A stretch of 64,000 bases of DNA from an uncultured Candidatus Sumerlaeota bacterium (GTDB taxonomy: Bacteria; Sumerlaeota; Sumerlaeia; MWCT01; JAUWMI01). The stretch is from the NCBI GenBank assembly GCA_964454265.1, contig CAYVXD010000002.1, positions 888 to 64,887 on the forward strand. Direction: 5' to 3'. Positions 3,080 through 50,067 of this stretch are shown in pieces (positions within the stretch are counted from its first letter, which is position 1; the number at the start of each line of letters is the position of its first letter). Both the position numbers and the translations under genes were made by a program. A model generated the notes under the pieces. The model was not told the origin of the DNA, searched no databases, and saw nothing but the letters and a program-made list of their open reading frames with translations.

Positions 3080-5955
3080 GCTAGCCAGTAGGTTCCTGCG
3101 TCAAGTGTAAGATTAGTTGGGGTGCCTGCGCTGATTGGAGCAACCACGAAGTCGTCTGTTGCGGTGTTGGCAATCTGTCCGGATTGCCAGCGGAGGGTTT
3201 TAGTGGTGGCTTCTTCGTAAAGTGCAAGGCGAAGCGTTCCGCTGGAGCTGTGGGAATATAAGTATACATTCGTCGCCAAGCCTGTCTCCGGCATAGTGAA
3301 TTTGGTGGCTTTTGCGAAGCCTTTCTGTGAAAGGCCAACGCGCACTACTCGCCCAGGTCTCGTGTAAGTGCTAAAATAGGCGTATCCTGTGAGCTGATCG
3401 ATCACCGCGCTCTCAAGATCATTCTCTCCCGAATTCAGCGTCACGGCACCCACCCGGCTCGGTGGGTTGGAACCTGAACCCAGCGCTACCTTCACCACTC
3501 GCCCGGGACTGGTAGAAGTGCCGAAATAGGCGTAGCCGGCCGAGGGATCGATCACCGCGCTCTCAAGATCATTCTCTCCCGAATTCAGCGTCACGGTACC
3601 CACCCGGCTCGGTGGATTGGAACCCGAACCCAGCTCTACCTTCACCACCCGCCCGGGACTGTTCCAAGTGCCGAAATAGGCGTATCCTGCGGATGAATCG
3701 ATCACCGCACATTGTAGAGAATTTTCTCCCGAATTCAAGGTTACTGCTCCGATGCGGGTTGGGGGGTTGGCGCCTGACCCCAGCCCTATTTTCACTACTT
3801 TCCCAGGCAAGGTATAGGTACCGAAGTAGGCATAGCCGGCAGAGGGGTCGATCACCGCGGCGCGGAGTCCATCCTCTCCTGAATTCAGGGTTACCGCTCC
3901 AACACGTGTGGGCGGGTTAGCGCCCGTGCCTAGCGCTACCTTTACCACTCGTCCGGGGCTGGTAGCCGTGCCGAAGTAGGCATAGCCTGCAGACGGATCG
4001 ATCACTGCACTCGCGAGATAGTCTTCCAATGGATTCGTTGCTACCGCTCCCACCCGGCTGAAGGTAGAAAGGTCAATCTTAACCACCTGCGGGGTTGTAC
4101 TACTGGTGCCGAAGTAGGCATAGCCCGCCGAGGAATCAATCACCGCACACCGGAGATTGTACTCTGGGAAACTCAGCGTTAATGCTGCAACGCGAGTGTT
4201 GCTTGAAAGGTCAACCTTTACTATCCACCCGCCGGGGTAGTTAGACGTGCCGAAATAGGCATATCCGGCCTGGGAATCGATTACTCCGCTCCTGAGTTCA
4301 TTCTCTCCCGCAGTGAGCATCACCCCACCCACGCGGCTCGGGGGGTTGGAGCCCGAACCCAGTGCAACCTTCACCACGAGCCCAGCGCTCGTATCTGTAC
4401 CGAAATAGACATAGCCGGACGAAGAGTCAATCACTGCGCTCACGACATGATCCTCTAACCCACTTAAAACAACATAACCCACCTCGCTAGGAGGGTTGGA
4501 ACCTGAACCAAGCGCTACCTTCATCACTTGACCCGCATCAGTGTCTGAGCCGAAATAGGCGTACCCTGCCGCCGTGTCGATTGCTGCAGACGCAAGATTA
4601 CCGACTATCAGTGTTGCTGCCCCCACGCGGGTGGGCGGGTTAGAGCCGGAACCGAGCGCCACCTTCACCACGTAGCCAGCTGCGGTATCTGTGCCGAAAT
4701 ATGCGTAACCAGCGGAAGGATCAATCACCGCGCACCGCAGTCGACCCTCTGCTGGATTCAACGACACTGCCCCGACACGGCTAGGCGGGTTAGAGCCCGA
4801 ACCGAGCGCAACCTTCACCACTTGCCCGGGGTAGCTTCGGGTTCCAAAATAGGCGTAGCCTGCGGAGGTATCGATCACCGCGCTGTATAGATACATCTCT
4901 CCAGAATTCAGTGTCACAGCCCCGACGCGGCTCGGCGGATTAGTGCCTGAGCCCAGTGCCACCTTGACCACGCGGCCAGGGTTGGTATCTGTGCCGAAGT
5001 AGGCATAACCCGCTGAGGTATCGATCGCCGCGCTCACAAGATAACTCTCCCCAGAGTTCAGTGTTAAGGCTCCGACGCGTGTGGGCGGGTTAGAGCCGGA
5101 GCCCAGTGCCACCTTGACTACTCGGCCAGGGTTGGTATCAGTGCCGAAATAGGCATAGCCCGCCGATGTGTCAATCACCGCACTCCGGAGAGCATTCTCT
5201 CCCTCATCCAGTATTAGCGATCCCACGCGGGTAAAAGTGGATAGGTTCATCTTTACCACTTTCCCTGGGCTGGTCCCAGTGCCGAAATAGGCGTAGCCTG
5301 CGGAGGTGTCGATCACCGCGCTAAGGAGATAATCATCTCCCACATTCAGCACCTCCGTGTCCAAGCGCCGAAGACCTGCATTTGGATATGCCGTGCTGCC
5401 GGGCGTATTGTTACCTGCAATCGGATCGCTGAAGCGCAGAGAGCGATCGGTGAAGACGTTGCCTGCACGGTCGGTAATCCGCACCGCAACCGTGTAGTAG
5501 CCCTCGCTGAGGCCGTGTGCGTTCCATTCCGCCTGATAGAGTCCCAGCGTTGCGTCAGTGCTCACGCCGCCCAAATTCATTGGCGCAGGCTTGAGTACAA
5601 GCGTATCTACGGGTTGCGCCTCTTCCTCGCCAGAAGCTGTGATCACCGCCTCAACGCGCTCGACACCCTCGACCCCCTTCACCACTGCCTGGATCTTTAG
5701 TTGCCCGCCGTTCTTCACCGACGGCGACGACAGGCTCGGTATCACGTGGATACGGCCATCGCCCGAACCGATTTTCTCTCCCGCCTGCACTGCAGCGGCT
5801 GGCGCAACCGCCGATTGGATAGCTGCGTTTTCATTCCCCGCAAAGCCAACTGAGCCAAAGCAAAAAAGCGGTAGCATCATAACACGTAATGCAACAACTG
5901 TGACTTTTTGCAGATAAGAAAATACTACTGCGTTGTGGGAACGTCTTTTGTCCAT
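3043..5955 (-). CDS. Secreted giant repeat protein: signal peptide, Ig-like domain, 14 beta-propeller-like repeats, C-terminal jelly-roll-like domain
   Basis: 970-aa ORF with a hydrophobic N-terminus. It carries 14 copies of the unit (A/S)VID-x-SAGYAYFGT-x3-PG-x-VVKVALGSGSNPP-x-RVG-x-TLNSGE. Confidence 0.85.
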   Translation of the reverse strand: MDKRRSHNAVVFSYLQKVTVVALRVMMLPLFCFGSVGFAGNENAAIQSAVAPAAAVQAGEKIGSGDGRIHVIPSLSSPSVKNGGQLKIQAVVKGVEGVERVEAVITASGEEEAQPVDTLVLKPAPMNLGGVSTDATLGLYQAEWNAHGLSEGYYTVAVRITDRAGNVFTDRSLRFSDPIAGNNTPGSTAYPNAGLRRLDTEVLNVGDDYLLSAVIDTSAGYAYFGTGTSPGKVVKMNLSTFTRVGSLILDEGENALRSAVIDTSAGYAYFGTDTNPGRVVKVALGSGSNPPTRVGALTLNSGESYLVSAAIDTSAGYAYFGTDTNPGRVVKVALGSGTNPPSRVGAVTLNSGEMYLYSAVIDTSAGYAYFGTRSYPGQVVKVALGSGSNPPSRVGAVSLNPAEGRLRCAVIDPSAGYAYFGTDTAAGYVVKVALGSGSNPPTRVGAATLIVGNLASAAIDTAAGYAYFGSDTDAGQVMKVALGSGSNPPSEVGYVVLSGLEDHVVSAVIDSSSGYVYFGTDTSAGLVVKVALGSGSNPPSRVGGVMLTAGENELRSGVIDSQAGYAYFGTSNYPGGWIVKVDLSSNTRVAALTLSFPEYNLRCAVIDSSAGYAYFGTSSTTPQVVKIDLSTFSRVGAVATNPLEDYLASAVIDPSAGYAYFGTATSPGRVVKVALGTGANPPTRVGAVTLNSGEDGLRAAVIDPSAGYAYFGTYTLPGKVVKIGLGSGANPPTRIGAVTLNSGENSLQCAVIDSSAGYAYFGTWNSPGRVVKVELGSGSNPPSRVGTVTLNSGENDLESAVIDPSAGYAYFGTSTSPGRVVKVALGSGSNPPSRVGAVTLNSGENDLESAVIDQLTGYAYFSTYTRPGRVVRVGLSQKGFAKATKFTMPETGLATNVYLYSHSSSGTLRLALYEEATTKTLRWQSGQIANTATDDFVVAPISAGTPTNLTLDAGTYWLAWQVDTSADVPS
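3360..5345 (-). repeat. Intragenic tandem coding repeats (about 129-150 nt units, 14 copies)
   Basis: Adjacent units are nearly identical at DNA level. For example, 3396-3510 and 3546-3660 share 'gatcgatcaccgcgctctcaagatcattctctcccgaattcagcgtcacgg...' with only a few substitutions at a 150-nt period. Confidence 0.9.
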
Positions 5956-6300: not shown

Positions 6301-6528
6301 AGCGTAAAGCTCAGGGTGAGGATGGAGGTGAGAGGATCTCGATTATTGCCGGGACGAGGATGAGCAAGGCTTTAGCTGCTTCGGCTGAAAATAAAAGAGC
6401 AGGTAAAAGATGTGGAGTTCATCTTTTACCTGACATGATCACTGTATCCAGTTTTTTCCAGCAAGGCCAAGAAGGGGTGCGCCACGGCGTACCCCTACTC
6501 AGTATTCCGCGGTTCGTTTTATTCAGGT

Positions 6529-8370
6529 CTACGGAATCGCGAGATAGTCAATCGCAACGCTGTCCATGTAGATGGTGCCGCCCTGCGCCGAGCTGAAGTC
6601 GAGCAGGTCAAGCGTCACAATGAATCCATCCTGTCCGGCCGTTGGTGAGCCAGGGAGAATTGGGGTCTCCCAGTAGACGTCGTAGTCAGTTCCACCAACT
6701 GTCGGCATTGCTCCTGGGCCAGCGCCCTGGCTGTTCAGCTCCATGGTCTGCGTCATCTGGCCGTCTTCATTCTGGATACGGAGCCTGACCTGTGGCATGG
6801 TGTTGCGTGCCACGTCACTCGCACACCTCAAGGTGTAGCTCGCACGATAGAGCTTATCCACTACATACGTAAGCTCGTTTGCCGTGCCACTGGACTGCCA
6901 CCATCCATAATTGGCATCCGCAGTGGTGCTAGCCGTGATGGAGAGCGTGCCAGTGCCTTCTCCGCCTGACGTCACCGGGCCAAATCCTACGTTGGTAACG
7001 AATCCCCAGTTGGAAAATTCGCCGCCACTGGCGTACGACTTGACCAATGTGCCAAGTGCCGGAAACGGGAACCGCTCTACAGTCACGGTATCTACATAGT
7101 GCGTTCCATACTGCGCCACGTCAAAGTCAAGCATATCAAAAGCCACACCCAGACTGCCGCTCACCACAGGCGCAAAGTAGCAGGTATATTCTTTCGTTGT
7201 TGGATCTGTGGGCAAGGAGTTGCTGTACGAGCCTGAGGCATTCACCACCTGCGTTGCTGACTCGAGTGATTGATCCTGCACCCAGCGCATACGGAACTGC
7301 GGATTCTGAGCTGCACTTGCCTGATTCGAGGAGACTTCGTACGTTGCACGGTATACGTTGTCTGCTACGTAGGCAAGTTCTGACGGCCCGGTCCATAGCC
7401 CTACGCGGTGCGTGCCATCATTTGCCGAGCTGACGCTTATCCGGCCACCACTATAGCTGGACGATGCCCCTGAGAATCCAGAACCACTCAGCGGCAGGAA
7501 TCCCCAGCCCTCCATGCTTGAATCATACGTATATTCCTTGACGAATGTAACTGGCGTTGCGGTGGGCGTCGGTGTTACGGCTGGTGTAGGAAATGCCATT
7601 GCATCGAGCTCCACCTGCCCGGGAATACTCTGCGCACTCGCGTCAAGATAGAGGCTGAACGTGCCGCCTGATGTATTGTATGCTATCAGGTCCCCATCAT
7701 CATAGAGCGTAGAATTCAACCTGGCTGCTGCATCGAAGGAGAATATCCACTCGGTATCACTCTCGCGACTGAAGGCATTGACATCTACCTGAGCTGGTAC
7801 TCCTTCAGCTGAGCCGTCAAAGTCAAGGCTGGCAGAGAACCCGCTCCCCGTGGTAAAGTGCACCATGTCCTCATCAGCTACCAGGCCTACCACGGGCAAC
7901 CGTGCATCTTCTTCAAGAGAGAATGAGAACTCGAACGGAGAGACAGCAATTACGTCTACTGCATCCAGATTCACCCTGGCTGGCAGGCCGTTGGCCGAGC
8001 CGTCCCACAGCAGGCTGATGCTCACTCCATTCCAGACCAGGAGGTCTTCATCTGCGTAAACCGTGCCGCCGATCTTTACATCTTCTGAAAGCGAGAAGAC
8101 CAGCAGGTCTTTTTCTATTAAATCCACGGCATCAATATTCACCTGTGGGGGGAGCAGGCTGGTTAAAGGCGAGCCATAGAGCGCATACGCGCCCACCCCA
8201 TCTGTATCTACCAGCTCATGGTCTGCGGGCGACAGGCTCACGTACGAGGCATCTTCATTATGCGAAAACACAAACGACGCCTCAGCAACCCCCGGCGGCC
8301 CAATACTCAGGCACACCAGCGCAGCCAGGAGCCAAAACGCTAGAACTAGCGATTGTCGATAATTTCTCAT
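6529..8370 (-). CDS. Secreted protein: 4 N-terminal ~45-aa repeats, PT linker, two CBM/jelly-roll-like domains
   Basis: 613-aa ORF with a signal peptide (LVLAFWLLAALVCLSIGPPGVAEA). Repeats read V(N/D)(L/I/V)DA(V/F)... and the linker reads FPTPAVTPTPTATP. Confidence 0.8.
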   Translation of the reverse strand: MRNYRQSLVLAFWLLAALVCLSIGPPGVAEASFVFSHNEDASYVSLSPADHELVDTDGVGAYALYGSPLTSLLPPQVNIDAVDLIEKDLLVFSLSEDVKIGGTVYADEDLLVWNGVSISLLWDGSANGLPARVNLDAVDVIAVSPFEFSFSLEEDARLPVVGLVADEDMVHFTTGSGFSASLDFDGSAEGVPAQVDVNAFSRESDTEWIFSFDAAARLNSTLYDDGDLIAYNTSGGTFSLYLDASAQSIPGQVELDAMAFPTPAVTPTPTATPVTFVKEYTYDSSMEGWGFLPLSGSGFSGASSSYSGGRISVSSANDGTHRVGLWTGPSELAYVADNVYRATYEVSSNQASAAQNPQFRMRWVQDQSLESATQVVNASGSYSNSLPTDPTTKEYTCYFAPVVSGSLGVAFDMLDFDVAQYGTHYVDTVTVERFPFPALGTLVKSYASGGEFSNWGFVTNVGFGPVTSGGEGTGTLSITASTTADANYGWWQSSGTANELTYVVDKLYRASYTLRCASDVARNTMPQVRLRIQNEDGQMTQTMELNSQGAGPGAMPTVGGTDYDVYWETPILPGSPTAGQDGFIVTLDLLDFSSAQGGTIYMDSVAIDYLAIP

Positions 8371-46125: not shown

Positions 46126-46342
46126 GCTCTGTTGAAAACCTTAGACCATACAAAAGAGGATATTGAAAATGATGGGTTCGCCACCTTGACGTAGCACGGG
46201 CGTCTCGCCCGTGTGGATTGACAACTATGGCACAAAGATCATCCGCCTAGGCGGATGCCACGTTATCAGAGCCACATTGACACTCCAAGTAGAATGGCGG
46301 TTCGATTTATTTCTGGCAGGATGTAAGGCTTTTCAACAGAGC
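46126..46342. repeat. MITE-like element: 17-18-nt terminal inverted repeats enclosing two GC hairpins
   Basis: The terminal repeats are gctctgttgaaaacctt (46126..46142) and aaggcttttcaacagagc (46325..46342). The internal hairpins are CACGGGCG-tct-CGCCCGTG (46195..46213) and CATCCGCCTAGGCGGATG (46240..46257). Confidence 0.5.
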
Positions 46343-46468: not shown

Positions 46469-46545
46469 CGGGGCGTAGCGCAGTTGGCTAGCGCGCAGCG
46501 TTCGGGACGCTGAGGTCGGGGGTTCAAGTCCCCCCGCCCCGACCA
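46469..46545 (+). tRNA. tRNA-Pro (anticodon CGG), CCA encoded
   Basis: A manual cloverleaf folds cleanly. Acceptor CGGGGCG/CGCCCCG, D stem GCGC/GCGC, anticodon stem CAGCG/CGCTG with loop TTCGGGA, T arm GGGGG-TTCAAGT-CCCCC, discriminator A plus CCA. Total 77 nt. Confidence 0.95.
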
Positions 46546-46668
46546 GATGCAACTTTGCGAATTTATGGGGTAATATGGCAGAAGATATTTATAAATGCTT
46601 GTGAGAAAGCAAAAATACAAAAAACAGTAACAGTCCATGCCCTCAGGCATAGTTTTGCAACCCACCTT

Positions 46669-46693
46669 CACGCCGGAGGCGCATTTTCAACTT
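46669..46693. repeat. Left copy of a 25-nt perfect inverted repeat inside the recombinase remnant
   Basis: cacgccggaggcgcattttcaactt is the exact reverse complement of 46741..46765. Confidence 0.95.
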
Positions 46694-46740
46694 GAGTGCG
46701 GAACTGACCTGAGGTACATTCAAGAGATTTCAGGGCATAA

Positions 46741-46765
46741 AAGTTGAAAATGCGCCTCCGGCGTG
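46741..46765. repeat. Right copy of the 25-nt perfect inverted repeat
   Basis: Reads aagttgaaaatgcgcctccggcgtg. Confidence 0.95.
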
Positions 46766-46892
46766 CAGTAAGACTACCGAAATCTATACGCAAGTGAGCA
46801 CTAAAGATATTGGAAGAATCAAAAGTCCACTGGATAGTCTGAATATAATCAAGGGGCGTAATAAGTGACAAAATTTGTCAATGCGAAGGGGA

Positions 46893-46992
46893 CCTCTGGT
46901 TCAGCCAGAGGGAGGTATATCCGAACATAGTTCGTCTATACCTCCAACTTAGGCGGATATCCGAACTCGGTTCGCATGTGAACGAGTTAGAT
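46893..46992 (+). promoter_or_regulatory. Structured attI-like/operator-like region upstream of the ATPase gene
   Basis: It opens with the hairpins CCTCTGG-ttcag-CCAGAGG and GGAGGTATA...TATACCTCC. Two direct copies of ATATCCGAAC-N3-GTTCG follow, at 46917 and 46957 (40 nt apart). A perfect GTTRRRY core (GTTAGAT, 46986..46992) closes the region. Confidence 0.45.
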
Positions 46993-47106
46993 GCAATTGG
47001 ACAGGAAATAACACTGAAAAGGAAAATGCTGCGTGATGAGGAAAAACACAAAATTGGTAACAAGGTGTGGGAGAGTGTATCAAAAAGATGAACTTTCAAG
47101 GGGGAT

Positions 47107-48408
47107 GTGATGAGAGAAGGCATTGTTGATAGGGTAAAGAGAGAAAGAGAAACCTATTTCAAGGACAGATTTGGGTTAAAATCAAATCCCTTTATATTAT
47201 CTCCTTACGGTGATATCAAGAGACTTGCAAGAGTATTTGTGGATAGAAAAGAAGAAATTGAAAGGGCAGTTGTTACATGTTTAGAAGAGCCTCGGAATAT
47301 CCTTGTCTATGGCATGTTTGGAATTGGAAAATCTGCTTTCATTCTCAAATTACTTTATGAATTTGCTAAGGCAACATATATTCGTTCCCTCACATCGTAT
47401 GGCTATATAGGAGAGGCTACTCCTAAAGGCTTTGTTGCCCAAGCATTGTTGGGTTTGGCTACTTCTCTGACTGGAAATGGAAAAGCAGAGCAATACAAAA
47501 AGACGCTACTGGGTACCAGTAGAGTTAAAGAAATAGAAAAAGAAATAAGCGGAGAGATCGAAGGTGGAGTATTAGTGATGAAGGGGAAAGGTGGTGGAAA
47601 ACTTGCATTTACATCTGCAGAAATAATAGAGACAAATCTAGACCAGTTAAAACTACAAGCCATGTTTAAAGAACTCGTAAAAATATCAAAGCACAAAGCT
47701 GACCGGATAATAATTGCGATTGATGAAATGGATAAGCGAAGCGCTGCGAAAGTCCAGGAAATTATTGCGGAATGTAGAGGTTTACTGCACGAGTCCGTTT
47801 CGTTTATACTAACTACCTCCTTAAGAGCCATGATCTACAGAGCAGATGAACTTGGCAAGAAATTAGATGATATTTATTCCACTTTTTATGGTGCATTTGA
47901 TGAGAAAATCGAAATAAAGCCCTTCTCTTTAGCTGACTTATCTACATTTGAAGAATTGGTTGAGAAATCTTTAGGATCAGTAAGAATTTCCGGATTCGAA
48001 AAGGGAATAGTTCCATTCACTAACGACGGAATTGAATTCATAGCTAAACGGAGCCACGGAGTTCCCCGAGTGTTCAACCGAATATGTAGAGATGTACTTG
48101 ATACTGCTTGGCGTTTAAAGCTTGAACAGATCAATTCGGCGGCTGTTAAGTATTGCTTCAGGGTAAAAGGGAAAGAAATTTTAGAAAGTTTACCTAGAAA
48201 ACAACGAAAACTTATCGATTTAATAAATGAGCGAGGGGGAACACTAGAAAGAGTAGATGATAAGCTTGTTACAAAATATAAAGCAAAAAATAAACAGGCA
48301 GTTTACAGGCAACTTGGTTTTTTGGTACAGAACGATAAGATAATAAAAATAGAAACAGAAGAAGGCACAAATTATGAAGTGATACCCGAAATCAAGGAAG
48401 TAACATAG
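47107..48408 (+). CDS. AAA+ ATPase (Orc1/Cdc6- or ExeA-like P-loop) with C-terminal winged-helix-like domain
   Basis: 433-aa ORF with an N-terminal FGLKSNPF...FVDRKEEIE. Walker A is GMFGIGKS, Walker B is RIIIAIDEMD, and there is a sensor-like SFILTTS. The C-terminal ~80 aa (QRKLIDLINERGGTLERVDD...YRQLGFLVQNDKIIK) look wHTH-like. The probable start is the ATG at 47110. Confidence 0.8.
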   Translation: MMREGIVDRVKRERETYFKDRFGLKSNPFILSPYGDIKRLARVFVDRKEEIERAVVTCLEEPRNILVYGMFGIGKSAFILKLLYEFAKATYIRSLTSYGYIGEATPKGFVAQALLGLATSLTGNGKAEQYKKTLLGTSRVKEIEKEISGEIEGGVLVMKGKGGGKLAFTSAEIIETNLDQLKLQAMFKELVKISKHKADRIIIAIDEMDKRSAAKVQEIIAECRGLLHESVSFILTTSLRAMIYRADELGKKLDDIYSTFYGAFDEKIEIKPFSLADLSTFEELVEKSLGSVRISGFEKGIVPFTNDGIEFIAKRSHGVPRVFNRICRDVLDTAWRLKLEQINSAAVKYCFRVKGKEILESLPRKQRKLIDLINERGGTLERVDDKLVTKYKAKNKQAVYRQLGFLVQNDKIIKIETEEGTNYEVIPEIKEVT

Positions 48409-48486
48409 AGGGGGGGAGTGTATCATAAATAGAGATAGGCAAAAAGCAAGCAGCAAAAATTTTGCAAGATTTGGACGACCAACTGC

Positions 48487-48560
48487 ATCTAACACGGGCT
48501 TTGCGGCTTACTGCATTCTCTCAAATGCTTCGCACTTCGTAAAGCCCAAGAACGTTATAT
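48487..48560 (+). other. attC-like element A (74 nt)
   Basis: R''-like ATCTAAC, stem GGGCTTTGCG/CGTAAAGCCC, and R'-like GTTATAT. It is homologous in layout and partly in sequence to element B. Confidence 0.45.
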
Positions 48561-48576
48561 GAAATTGCTATGATAC

Positions 48577-49533
48577 ATGGGGGAAATTATGTTAGCTTTG
48601 TTTCTTGGAGCCGGCTTTTCTAAGTGGGCTGCAAATTTACCGGTGGCCAGTCAGTTCTTTGATTTTAACGTTGAACCTTCGGGGCCACGTGAGCTTAAAA
48701 AATTGGAGATTGTAAGGTCGTTAAAACATAATTGGGACAAATCACACCCGTATGGGCTTAGCGAACAATTCATTGTAGATGCATTGAAATTTGAGGAGAA
48801 AAAGAAAGAGGCGGTTCTTTGGTATATTGTTCGTAGGCTTTCGGAACCATTTATTTGGAAAGAATATCATGCACAGAAATGGCGCAGACATGTTTTGATG
48901 ATTGATGAAAATCGCAAATACGATAGACCAGGAGTCATTCAAGCACAAAAGTTTCTTAAGAAATATTCGACCCCATCTTTAGCTGGTATCATAACCACGA
49001 ATTATGATATCCTTGTTGAATATGCGCTTGGGACAAAGGGATTCAACTACGGTATCCCTAATCAAGCGCTTACAGGTCGAGGGCCGTATCCCGTTTCTCA
49101 GTGGAAAAATCCCGTTATACTAAAAGGCAATATCCCGATAGCGAAAATTCATGGTAGTATTTCATGGGATGAACATAATCAATATACAGATGGGAGGCAT
49201 GGTTTGACAGGTCATGCTTTGATTGTGGCACCAACGCCCGAGAAAGAATCATCAGAATCTTTGAGATTTGTTTGGAACTTGGCTAAAGAAATTCTCAGAA
49301 AAGCCACACGAATCATTGTTTTTGGGTTTGCATTTAACCCTTACGACACTTCCGTTCTGAATTTTCTAAAATCTGAAGGTAAGAACTTGGAGTCTGTTCT
49401 CTTGGTGAATATAGGATCCAACACTGAGGCGGCACGTATTCTGTGGCCACGCGCTAAAATTGTATCGACAATGCCGCCACCAGATGGGAATAAAGAGATG
49501 CAAAATTGGCAGAAGAAATGGCTAGGAATATGA
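48577..49533 (+). CDS. Stand-alone SIR2-like (SIR2_2/ThsA-type) domain protein, putative NADase effector
   Basis: 318-aa ORF with LFLGAGFS at the N-terminus, ITTNYD (catalytic Asn) and KIHGSISW (catalytic His). The probable start is the ATG at 48589 (GGGGGA lies 4 nt upstream). Confidence 0.8.
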   Translation: MGEIMLALFLGAGFSKWAANLPVASQFFDFNVEPSGPRELKKLEIVRSLKHNWDKSHPYGLSEQFIVDALKFEEKKKEAVLWYIVRRLSEPFIWKEYHAQKWRRHVLMIDENRKYDRPGVIQAQKFLKKYSTPSLAGIITTNYDILVEYALGTKGFNYGIPNQALTGRGPYPVSQWKNPVILKGNIPIAKIHGSISWDEHNQYTDGRHGLTGHALIVAPTPEKESSESLRFVWNLAKEILRKATRIIVFGFAFNPYDTSVLNFLKSEGKNLESVLLVNIGSNTEAARILWPRAKIVSTMPPPDGNKEMQNWQKKWLGI

Positions 49534-49543
49534 GCCCAATTTC

Positions 49544-49619
49544 ATCTAACAGCATGTTTACGGTTCGCTACGCTCACCCAAATGCTTTCGGCACTTCGCA
49601 AACACGCAGGACGTTAACC
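49544..49619 (+). other. attC-like element B (76 nt)
   Basis: R''-like ATCTAAC, stem GCATGTTTACG/CGCAAACACGC with 2 mismatches, and R'-like GTTAACC. The central caaatgctt..gcacttcg is shared with element A. Confidence 0.45.
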
Positions 49620-49818
49620 AAATTTGATATTGCCATTTTATGGGTTCGCAAAGCGTTTTAAGTGCGAGCATTTCCTGCCTTAAAATCCAGTAGCCGGGTA
49701 TGCCTTCCTGGTTTCATTAAGGGCCTTCTGCACCTGTTAATTGTGTTGAATTGCTGCGCCTATAATGACTATGGCTTGAAAGGTGATCCTTCCCCTTCAC
49801 TTTGTTCAGGGTCAGGAT

Positions 49819-49850
49819 GAGGGGTCGGGGGTAGAACTCCCCGACCCCTC
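49819..49850. repeat. GC-rich hairpin
   Basis: Reads GAGGGGTCGGGG-gtagaact-CCCCGACCCCTC (12-bp stem). Confidence 0.85.
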
Positions 49851-50067
49851 AATTATTTGCGTCAAGTGGCCAGTTAATCATTTGACATTTTCATATAGAT
49901 TGCCATGATGGTTGCGATTATCTGAATTGTTTACGATTCACGTTTTTGCAATAGAGCATTGGAAATCCCTCAAGCCAATCGCGTAAAGCCGCTTTTTCAG
50001 CGTGCGTTTATTAGATCGAGCAGGGATAGCCATAGGCTGAGAGTATCCTTGGTTTTAATGTGAATCC

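Follow-up and report, generated by a model that had tools for sequence, protein, structure and literature searches.

The closest described relatives of the locus analysed here are the chromosomal integrons, among them the 'inverted' Treponema-type arrangement and CALINs (attC clusters without an integrase). In integrons an IntI/Xer-lineage tyrosine recombinase is encoded next to an attI site, crossover takes place at G/TT, and promoter-less, co-oriented cassettes each end in an imperfect palindrome (attC) that has RYYYAAC...GTTRRRY boxes and folds more stably on its bottom strand. Their cargo is rich in restriction-modification, toxin-antitoxin and defence genes, and their recombinase gene is often decayed. 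Classical attC sites carry extrahelical L-box bases and an unpaired central spacer of ~5 × 6 nt (PMC5027507), and one account (PMC7790495) credits I2, the IntI-specific insertion, with single-strand attC recombination. Archaeal integrons are mostly CALINs with attC sites shared across domains; the archaeal IntIs carry the IntI-specific additional domain, and three of six are partial (Ghaly et al. 2022, PMC9668308). The dif and pdif sites of the Xer systems measure 28 bp, comprise two inverted 11-bp arms and a 6-bp spacer, and flank modules in alternating orientation. Finally, an 'integron-like' subgroup of simple tyrosine recombinases, which would accommodate the family discussed below, includes insertion-less members given without sites, cassettes or function (Smyshlyaev et al. 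2021, PMC8138268).

The DNA under study, here termed the window, is a stretch of 64,000 nt from an uncultured Candidatus Sumerlaeota bacterium. Its 46.5-49.85 kb portion is very probably a small low-GC islet beside tRNA-Pro(CGG) that contains a dead integron-type gene-capture platform, made up of the 3' ~88 codons of a recombinase gene, an attI region, a KAP-type P-loop NTPase cassette and a SIR2-like cassette (Table 1). The initial annotation, made from the letters of the window, had proposed an order of recombinase remnant, attI-like site, cassette, attC-like site, cassette and attC-like site. This anatomy holds, with the C-terminal remnant, the GTTAGAT and the two homologous hairpin elements (74 and 76 nt) all recovered in place, and its reading of the locus as an integron proves largely right. 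The locus is not a canonical integron, however; it is a member of an integron-like family, widespread in bacteria and archaea, in which the recombinase is without the insertion thought to define integron integrases. We found no paper describing an integron type of this kind.

Table 1. Features of the islet (positions in the window)
Feature	Position	Strand	Remarks
tRNA-Pro (anticodon CGG)	46469..46545	+	ARAGORN; Rfam tRNA 66.7 bits; left edge of low-GC islet
IntI-like tyrosine recombinase C-terminal remnant, ~88 codons, pseudogene	46558..46868	+	tblastn pieces, profile matches
22-nt insert CACGCCGGAGGCGCATTTTCAA	46669..46690	+	disrupts recombinase reading frame
Second copy of 22-nt insert, inverted	46744..46766	-	disrupts recombinase reading frame
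attI palindrome 1, TATATCCGAAC-ATA-GTTCGTCTATA	46916..46940	.	pair of palindromes also 3' of recombinase in other loci
attI palindrome 2, GATATCCGAAC-TCG-GTTCGCATGT, then GAACGA	46956..46979	.	cross-locus comparison
attI crossover box GTTAGAT	46986..46992	+	121 nt 5' of ATPase start 47107
Cassette 1, 1568 nt: P-loop NTPase ORF 47107-48408 + attC-like site 1	46987..48554	+	
attC-like site 1, 74 nt, ATCTAAC...GTTATAT	48487..48560	+	starts 79 nt past ATPase stop
Cassette 2, 1059 nt: SIR2-like ORF (48577 or 48589 to 49533) + attC-like site 2	48555..49613	+	
attC-like site 2, 76 nt, ATCTAAC...GTTAACC	49544..49619	+	starts 11 nt past SIR2 stop
14-bp hairpin then T-rich tail	49818..49851	+	terminator-like; possible right islet edge

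The recombinase gene survives as three pieces in frame (46558-46668, 46691-46744 and 46767-46865), with clear homology from ~46576 (WQKIF) and a stop codon at 46866-46868; taking out the two 22-nt inserts restores the reading frame. When so repaired, the remnant matches Pfam PF00589 at 2.8e-17 and has the integron integrase model TIGR02249 as its top NCBIfam match, at 89 bits and reaching the model end, versus 77 bits for XerD. Its identity is 77% to the full-length gene of a related locus, L116, and 44% to IntI1. Truncated at the end of tRNA-Pro and broken by two frame-disrupting inserts, this copy of the platform is dead. The 5' two-thirds of the gene have been lost with a breakpoint at the tRNA end, the inserts entered the remnant after that loss, and movement of the two cassettes would now need a recombinase supplied in trans. 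The inserted 22-mer is also a dispersed hairpin-type repeat in metagenome contigs of a relative of the source organism; these inverted inserts and the palindromes of the attI region were both missing from the initial annotation.

The closest full-length relatives are IntI-like proteins of ~345 aa that have 36-39% identity to IntI1 and the SPLD tail in common with it. When aligned with verified IntI1, they are missing the ~41 residues of I2 (~40 residues fewer than VchIntIA in that region) and carry an extra N-terminal domain of ~75 aa. The window remnant begins ~30 residues past the I2 position, so it is through these relatives that its parent recombinase, too, is taken to have been without I2. 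For example, the L116 protein has VchIntIA (2A3V) as its top solved structure, matched in two segments that leave out chain residues 171-231, can be aligned along its whole length with the XerA structures 5HXY and 4A8E, and scores above the NCBIfam XerA_Arch cut-off; it also passes NF040815 (239 bits, cut-off 220) and fails TIGR02249 (225 bits, cut-off 265). In 107 of the 109 family members, 90 aa separate the catalytic Arg from HxLRH, and the recombinases are of the simple Xer/IntI type, with the phage-type arm-binding domain absent. For the N-terminal domain, a structural model (pLDDT 92) gives the SMARCAL1 HARP domain and the XPB N-terminal domain as best folds, at a probability of 0.98-0.99 and with weak E-values (0.03-0.07); the Pfam HARP match is under its cut-off. 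The domain as modelled resembles the fold of structure-specific DNA-recognition modules (HARP, the XPB damage-recognition domain, MutS domain I).

Downstream of the remnant, the palindrome motif TATCCGAAC-N3-GTTCG occurs twice just 5' of GTTAGAT and at these two places only in the 64-kb window, and the palindrome pair is kept 3' of the recombinase stop codon in L116, L121, L123, L126, L128, L129, L132 and L134. Around the crossover box, 14/15 positions of GTTAGATGCAATTGG agree with the cassette-1 R'' extension in reverse complement. That GTTAGAT pairs with the ATCTAAC of its own cassette, as had been supposed, is borne out by the other loci: among 18 cassettes from nine loci, 15 have an R'' extension that is complementary to the beginning of the cassette it closes (11/12 and 10/12 positions in the window) and that fits this beginning better than the following R' (7.8/12 vs 5.2/12; Wilcoxon p = 0.002, 18 cassettes). 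Additionally, three metagenome contigs capture the site in both states. The empty site of L125 reads ...GGATATAACTTG/TTATGATAGG, the slash marking the crossover, and in L123 and L124 a 145-aa-ORF cassette, TTGTATGC...GAACG, occupies that site; recombinase and flanks on either side are the same in all, and the empty and filled contigs differ by exactly one cassette. Insertion took place at G/TT, 95 nt 3' of the recombinase stop codon, and with crossover at the R' end only, cassette orientation is fixed. Judging from L125 (empty) and L123 (filled), we infer a crossover in the window between G46986 and T46987.

In the window, the cassette-1 ORF matches Pfam KAP_NTPase at 27 bits (cut-off 20), with weak matches to AAA_16/ATPase_2/STAND and the NCBIfam Sll1717-family ATPase, and the cassette-2 ORF matches Pfam SIR2_2 at 26.9 bits (cut-off 24.5) and PADLOC SIR2 models to 2.8e-12. 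Site 1 consists of the R'' box, a 10-bp L stem (GGGCTTTGCG/CGTAAAGCCC), the core CAAATGCTTCGCACTTCG, the spacer AAGAAC and the R' box; in the L stem of site 2 (GCATGTTTACG/CGCAAACACGC) two top-strand A·C mismatches become G·T pairs on the bottom strand. For both, the bottom strand folds more stably than the top (-12.8 vs -10.2 kcal/mol for site 1, -8.4 vs -4.7 for site 2). The two sites, 1057 nt apart, are ~70% identical and share a stem that has changed in sequence and kept its pairing, which agrees with the initial annotation; each R' box is one base off GTTRRRY. Two matches to CATCTAAC-N50-75-ACGTTA occur in the window against 0.01 expected, and two to CAAATGCTT-N0-4-GCACTTCG against 0.00 expected. 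Covariance model R1 scores the sites at 92.1 bits (E 3e-23) and 78.1 bits, each being itself among the sequences from which R1 was built. Over 77 nt, site 1 has 87% identity to a Desulfosporosinus element. With two sites and a broken ~88-codon remnant as the sole nearby recombinase gene, the locus would be a CALIN if such sites are counted as attC. The proposal of a decayed integron or CALIN with ATPase and SIR2 cassettes thus stands as regards an integron-type cassette platform and fails as regards a canonical IntI, given the I2-less relatives and their failure at the TIGR02249 cut-off.

Homologous elements are present in at least 12 other genomes from many phyla. Copies at 85-88% identity were found in Desulfosporosinus, Peptococcaceae, Atribacterota, WOR-3, Stahlbacteria, Bipolaricaulota, Neomarinimicrobiota, Thermotogae (six in 4.7 kb) and two archaeal MAGs, where the taxon labels of MAG contigs, "archaeon" included, may be binning errors, although the L116 tRNA-Pro has a sequence unlike that of the two bacterial ones. 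The first set of homologues was found by a motif drawn from the elements themselves, so part of the core conservation seen there is ascertainment. In loci picked by recombinase homology alone (L121 from Thermodesulforhabdus norvegica, L123-125, L126, L128, L129/130, L132/133), covariance-model matches were recovered in all six independent loci having at least 1 kb of downstream sequence. All matches at E < 0.01, the E-values being rough, come after the recombinase in its own orientation and just past a gene end; upstream of it, and on the opposite strand, the 175 kb searched gave no such match. Co-orientation of recombinase and cassettes, flagged earlier as unusual, is real and the rule in the family.

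The family sites are imperfect palindromes of 70-125 nt, in one orientation throughout, with RYYYAAC/GTTRRRY boxes, a conserved CCCAAAT...ACTTC core, and conservation of structure rather than sequence. Pairing of the L stem stands at 91.6% among 14 copies, with compensatory change at 6/11 pairs; among 31 copies overall pairing is 87.5%, with compensatory change at 16/18 pairs, a level reached by 0/500 shuffles and compared with 23-42% for slid controls. Alignment A4 was fitted to the model, a procedure that favours the pairing counts. In 28 of 30 sites the bottom strand folds more stably than the top, the mean difference being 1.8 kcal/mol. Spacer asymmetry, also remarked on earlier, is real and typical of the family (1 nt between R'' and L'' vs 4-6 nt between L' and R'). 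The extrahelical bases that the initial annotation expected in the folded bottom strands are absent; the L stem runs continuously for 10-11 bp without bulged bases in the family sites. Rfam holds no attC family and no family matching the element.

Comparison of the loci shows a recombinase gene that reads towards the cassettes, with attI just past its stop codon; cassettes enter at the G/TT of attI, each with one attC-like 3' site whose R'' box is complementary to the first bases of the same cassette. By analogy with integrons, recombination of the site would take place on one folded strand, most likely the bottom one. Compared with chromosomal integrons, the present system shares every feature listed at the outset for recombinase lineage, attI, cassettes, cargo and decay. 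Unlike them, its recombinase is without I2 and has the HARP/DRD-like N-terminal domain, attI lies 3' of the gene with two palindromes instead of direct repeats, the sites have a 1 × 4-6-nt spacer, no extrahelical bases and a conserved branched CCCAAAT...ACTTC core in place of a free variable loop, and most hosts belong to anaerobic lineages, among them Bacillota, Thermotogae, Atribacterota and archaea. Several loci are archaeal MAG contigs (L116, L128, L003), as in the archaeal integrons of PMC9668308, whose supplementary tables contain none of the element-family motif strings. Speculatively, the N-terminal domain may take over from I2 in reading the 4-6-nt L'-R' bulge and the branched core. 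A more far-reaching reading, somewhat less likely than not, is of a distinct, widespread integron class of anaerobic bacteria and archaea in which I2 was never present or was lost, and in which the HARP/damage-recognition-like domain, the bulge and the branched core replace recognition of extrahelical bases. If the distinct-class reading is true, I2 is not required for single-stranded cassette recombination, and the family represents either a natural Xer-to-IntI intermediate or a separate answer to the same problem.

Among the alternatives, the one that fares best, though unlikely, accepts the same anatomy and has the sites recombine as double strands in a Xer/dif-like manner (cf. the Acinetobacter plasmid pdif modules), with the hairpin a by-product of inverted binding sites. 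The XerA model scores above cut-off, the I2 credited in PMC7790495 with single-strand recombination is missing, and the attI palindromes resemble double-stranded core sites. Yet the L stem has been maintained by compensatory changes despite sequence drift, the bottom strand is nearly always favoured, and sites far longer than 28 bp cross over at a GTT at the R' end only, in a single orientation. As for the Xer enzymes themselves, the catalytic domain has the length found in XerA and XerC/D, with no insertion. The recombinase gene is no lone housekeeping gene, being often truncated, in variable islets and followed by cassettes, and its N-terminal domain and SPLD tail are both absent from XerA. 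Less probable still is a canonical remnant, whose lost part bore the IntI-specific insertion and whose sites are ordinary attC in the Treponema-type inverted arrangement suggested earlier. The best family match of the remnant, its SPLD tail and identity to IntI1, and the R''/R' boxes with G/TT crossover would all suit it, but all close full-length relatives (to 77% identity) are without the insertion and under the IntI cut-off, and the sites depart from attC in extrahelical bases, spacers and core; the recombinase is not a canonical IntI of any type. The initial annotation had named clustering of the recombinase fragment with phage integrases lacking the IntI-specific insertion as grounds for rejecting an integron; because the closest full-length relatives lack it and fall under the TIGR02249 cut-off, that objection applies to the letter, and the cassette evidence still stands. 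That the elements are ordinary terminators, 3'-UTR structures or REP/MITE-type repeats lying by chance beside a phage-type integrase remnant of a tRNA-integrated island is scarcely credible, for all that the islet is GC-poor and at a tRNA gene, the elements sit 3' of genes and their window folding z-scores are modest (-2.1 to +0.8), since no T tract follows them, near-identical copies lie 3' of unrelated genes across phyla, the elements in the loci searched lie only downstream of this recombinase family and co-oriented with it, the recombinase has no phage-type arm-binding domain, no Rfam family covers the elements, and own-start complementarity and the empty and filled sites contradict it.

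GC content in the islet is 37-41% vs ~51% in the flanks, and returns to ~50% past ~50.2 kb. In L116 and L091, too, the related system is immediately preceded by a tRNA-Pro(CGG). Of the features of a phage-type tRNA island, the integrase arm-binding domain is absent, and what may be a tRNA repeat at the far border is also terminator-like: 49823-49842 matches tRNA positions 46514-46533 at 17/20, with CCCCGACC also in common, and the right-hand hairpin may be a terminator or else a degenerate copy of the 3' end of tRNA-Pro.

An IntI-like recombinase lacking the I2 insertion, together with a downstream cassette platform, constitutes an integron variant for which we found no earlier description, and the window locus is a dead, inactive copy of this family whose value lies in pointing to its wider membership. 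All of the features listed in the initial annotation are present in the window sequence (see the table), within a region of 37-41% GC as compared with ~51% in the surroundings. The host is an uncultured bacterium whose AtpD is 100% identical to a protein on a 72.7-kb NCBI contig and shares ~80% identity with its counterparts in Candidatus Sumerlaeota/BRC1, the nearest named relatives. The two attC-like elements are indeed homologous, with ~70% identity and a common stem whose sequence has changed and whose pairing is kept; patterns common to both occur twice in the window, vs 0.00-0.01 occurrences expected by chance. The hairpin beyond the second cassette may be a degenerate att repeat at the right edge of the islet, or a mere terminator.

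Features of the recombinase-cassette locus in the window
Feature	Position	Remarks
tRNA-Pro(CGG)	3' end 46545	
22-nt repeat CACGCCGGAGGCGCATTTTCAA	46669-46690 (+), 46744-46766 (-)	two copies in recombinase remnant, inverted orientation
Tyrosine-recombinase C-terminus (remnant)	stop codon 46866-46868	
GTTAGAT	46986-46992	
P-loop NTPase ORF	47107-48408	433 aa
Element 1	48487-48560	74 nt, after NTPase ORF
SIR2-like ORF	start 48577 or 48589, end 49533	
Element 2	49544-49619	76 nt, after SIR2-like ORF
14-bp hairpin	49818-49851	17/20 match to tRNA-Pro 3' part, CCCCGACC in common; terminator-like too

The recombinase remnant reads through once the two inverted 22-nt inserts are removed, and its best NCBIfam match is to TIGR02249 (integron integrase; 89 bits, extending to the last model position), with XerD at 77 bits. 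Its identification as a fragment of an integron integrase stands in part: this match and the SPLD tail favor it, whereas close full-length relatives lack the I2 insertion. One such relative, encoded by an intact gene on an archaeal MAG contig (L116; 373 aa in the ORF listing, 77% identity to the remnant), passes the NF040815 model ('site-specific tyrosine recombinase/integron integrase') with 239 bits (cut-off 220) and fails TIGR02249 with 225 bits (cut-off 265). The best solved structure for this protein is VchIntIA (2A3V), matched in two segments with chain residues 171-231 left out between them, and the protein's alignment with XerA structures is gap-free. More than 7900 proteins match the family at E < 1e-30, and the catalytic Arg and the HxLRH motif are 90 residues apart in 107 of 109 relatives. 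Compared with an IntI1 reference whose 100% identity to annotated IntI1 had been checked beforehand, family members display 36-39% identity and the same SPLD tail, yet ~41 residues are absent exactly at the IntI-specific insertion and a ~75-residue N-terminal domain has been added. The family recombinase is thus IntI-like and not an IntI.

The added N-terminal domain is modeled with a pLDDT of 92. In sequence-profile comparison with solved structures it comes closest to the SMARCAL1 HARP domain (E 0.007), and in fold it best matches HARP, the archaeal XPB N-terminal damage-recognition domain and MutS domain I with probabilities of 0.98-0.99 and TM-scores of ~0.6, at weak E-values of 0.03-0.07. 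All three are modules that recognize distorted or branched DNA. At E ≤ 0.001, the HARP-like N-terminal domain occurs in 3916 cluster representatives (P0361, P0368, P0370 and others), some of which are proteins of 580-790 aa with 3-4 tandem copies; the domain is therefore not limited to recombinases. A widespread Acinetobacter-plasmid recombinase ('TnpF' in FJ012881) shares 51% identity with the C-terminal 63% of the family protein and has no N-terminal domain.

The genome scan for further elements used a common core motif of 17 bases and, because this motif was too loose, most of its 120 loci are chance matches. True element homologs are present in 12 of them, with 85-88% identity over 57-79 nt, in Desulfosporosinus, Peptococcaceae, Atribacterota, WOR-3, Stahlbacteria, Bipolaricaulota, Neomarinimicrobiota, a Thermotogae MAG with six copies on one strand within 4.7 kb, and two archaeal MAGs; the element is not represented by any Rfam family. 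Copies from outside the window have textbook-like terminal boxes (GCCTAAC...GTTAGGC). The 11-bp inner (L) stem is paired at 91.6%, with compensatory change in six of its 11 pairs. Across 31 element copies, compensatory change affects 16 of 18 pairs and 87.5% of cells are paired, counts that are favored by fitting of the alignment to a covariance model; none of 500 shuffles scored as high, and slid controls reached 23-42%.

Elements and recombinases go together in loci picked by recombinase homology alone: Thermodesulforhabdus norvegica (L121), three metagenome contigs (L123-L125), L126, a Methanotrichaceae MAG (L128), L129/130 and L132/133. In each, a co-oriented run of unrelated genes lies downstream of the recombinase gene, the same co-orientation that had been pointed out as unusual in the window. 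A covariance model built from 14 element copies located elements in all six independent loci whose downstream sequence spans 1 kb or more. Every match at E < 0.01 lies downstream of the recombinase, on the same strand and directly behind a gene, and none lies upstream or on the opposite strand in 175 kb. Loci with cassette arrays also have a common attI layout, in which the stop codon and the first cassette are separated by two palindromes, (T)ATATNCGAAC-N3-GTTCGNATAT, then 5-8 nt (often GAACGA) and GTT; in the window the palindrome motif occurs at 46918 and 46958 only. A promoter scan gave matches at a frequency no higher than in shuffled sequence, and so no Pc promoter is claimed.

The strongest evidence for integron-style cassettes is a natural insertion among the three metagenome contigs, which encode one identical recombinase. 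L125 has an empty site, ...TTCGGATATAACTTG|TTATGATAGG..., and at the same point L123 and L124 carry a cassette, TTGTATGC...(145-aa ORF)...GCATACAAC-A-GCGACTATGCG...CGCATAGTCGC-GAAC-G, followed by |TTATGATAGG, which places the crossover at the G|TT position known from integrons. The cassette that comes next starts with GTTATGATA and its element has TATCATAAC as R'', a 9/9 match. Such pairing of a cassette's end with its own start, proposed for GTTAGAT and the ATCTAAC closing the first window cassette, recurs in other loci. In the Thermotogae array, the R'' extension agrees with the R' of the preceding element, i.e. the start of its own cassette, at 15/15, 13/14 and 16/19 positions, and less well with the R' that follows. 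For 18 cassettes from nine loci, own-start complementarity averages 7.8 of 12 positions vs 5.2 of 12 for the following site and is the higher in 15 (p = 0.002), and the two window cassettes score 11 vs 8 and 10 vs 6. The integron-type reading of the window is largely borne out, with elements that delimit cassettes, and for the family the comparison of loci and sites establishes insertion at the G|TT of attI, a fixed cassette orientation and selection on site structure.

In classical attC sites the L box contains extrahelical bases, which the integrase contacts, the central spacer is unpaired and the terminal structure varies (PMC5027507). Family sites differ: contrary to what the initial annotation expected, the L stem is continuous and has no bulged bases, whereas the spacer asymmetry described there is real and family-wide (1 nt on the R''-L'' side vs 4-6 nt on the L'-R' side), creating a one-strand bulge. 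In place of a variable terminal structure, their center consists of a conserved branched core in which the motifs CCCAAAT and ACTTC are unpaired. In 28 of 30 sites, the bottom strand is more stable than the top strand. We infer that family sites recombine as a folded single strand; a double-stranded, Xer-like recombination at these sites, the chief alternative mechanism, seems improbable. With a folded single strand as substrate, the N-terminal domain might, speculatively, act in structure recognition and, together with the bulge or the branched core, replace the contact between I2 and extrahelical bases.

Both the literature and IntegronFinder define an integron integrase by its I2 insertion. 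The gain of I2 is presented as the step that enabled recombination of folded single-stranded attC sites (PMC7790495, PMC4792948). With a large natural family of I2-less, IntI-like recombinases, hairpin-ended cassette arrays and population-level insertion at G|TT, this model would become directly testable. Ghaly et al. 2022 described integrons of archaea in which attI directly follows intI, and stated that the IntIs carry the IntI-specific additional domain (PMC9668308); the supplementary tables of that study contain none of the family motif strings. For an integron-like subgroup, Smyshlyaev et al. 2021 called the insertion 'not fully conserved' and gave no further analysis (PMC8138268). In the full-text literature searched, outside which many subscription papers fall, a recombinase that lacks I2 and has cassettes is nowhere described. 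Standard annotation names these proteins 'site-specific tyrosine recombinase/integron integrase' or 'XerD', so that cassette platforms would be undercounted, and the family could account for some of the numerous 'CALINs' from phyla that are said to be without integrons.

Cargo across the loci examined consists mainly of restriction-modification, toxin-antitoxin and other defense-type genes, which ties the family to the idea that integrons are defense-gene stores; the runs downstream of the recombinase include restriction-modification pairs, methyltransferases, HicAB, ParE and HEPN/nucleotidyltransferase genes. The first window cassette codes for a KAP-type P-loop NTPase, the second for a SIR2_2-domain protein. 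SIR2-domain proteins of defense systems deplete NAD+, which makes a defense role plausible for this cargo. The ATPase-SIR2 pair matches no named defense system in PADLOC or NCBIfam and each gene has its own site, and the two genes may therefore be independent of one another. Exact-sequence look-ups of an 831-aa window protein and of SIR2 (two alternative starts) returned no match, nor did tblastn of both window proteins against all 139 fetched loci.

Variations on the arrangement were also encountered. On a Chryseobacterium plasmid (L139, NZ_CP041688; 10023-17849), covariance model R1 has no significant match downstream of a 40%-identical recombinase, annotated as 'site-specific tyrosine recombinase/integron integrase'. 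Between the co-oriented genes that follow it lies a 282-nt repeat, present four times, and the run contains a group II intron as well as an IS110-family transposase; a cassette system of another kind, built around a related recombinase, may be at hand here. L124 (14030-17032) differs from L123 by a further ~3.3 kb despite the identical recombinase, and the extra segment, which includes a DDE transposase, is probably an IS-mediated insertion inside the array.

Recombinase-gene decay appears to be very common in the family. The 120 best database matches to the window remnant are all short proteins (69-154 aa), and on longer contigs the complete Thermodesulfovibrio chromosome (L134, 6001-6453) and L135 (5338-6339) have truncated or split recombinase genes with cassettes still downstream in the same layout. 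A recombination hot spot inside the gene was considered as the source of truncated copies and dropped because the breakpoints differ between copies. The 22-nt inserts in the window remnant are a small dispersed hairpin repeat that is present too in a relative's metagenome contigs. In one fetched locus (L137) it forms a full hairpin with a 15-bp stem and an extra half copy close by, and in another (L138) it sits within a hairpin loop, the hairpin itself being uninterrupted in the window at ~46196-46216; the repeat behaves like a tiny REP-like insertion unit.

Finally, three hosts have tRNA-Pro(CGG) immediately upstream of the system (L116, 2211-2284; the Neomarinimicrobiota locus L091, 3743-3818; window, 46469-46545), which suggests that a sub-lineage of the platform, or an islet bearing it, targets this gene. 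The L116 tRNA is host-type and its sequence is unlike the two bacterial ones, and the tRNA is therefore not part of the element's load. It lies 172 nt upstream of the intact recombinase gene in L116 and ~230 nt upstream of an attI remnant and a two-gene cassette in L091; from this spacing, a ~1-kb deletion from the tRNA end into the recombinase gene would yield the window arrangement. On either side of the L091 islet (3862-3950 and 6508-6600) stands the 5' part of a small host gene, with ~80% identity between the two copies, and it looks as if this islet brought along a foreign copy of its target when it arrived.
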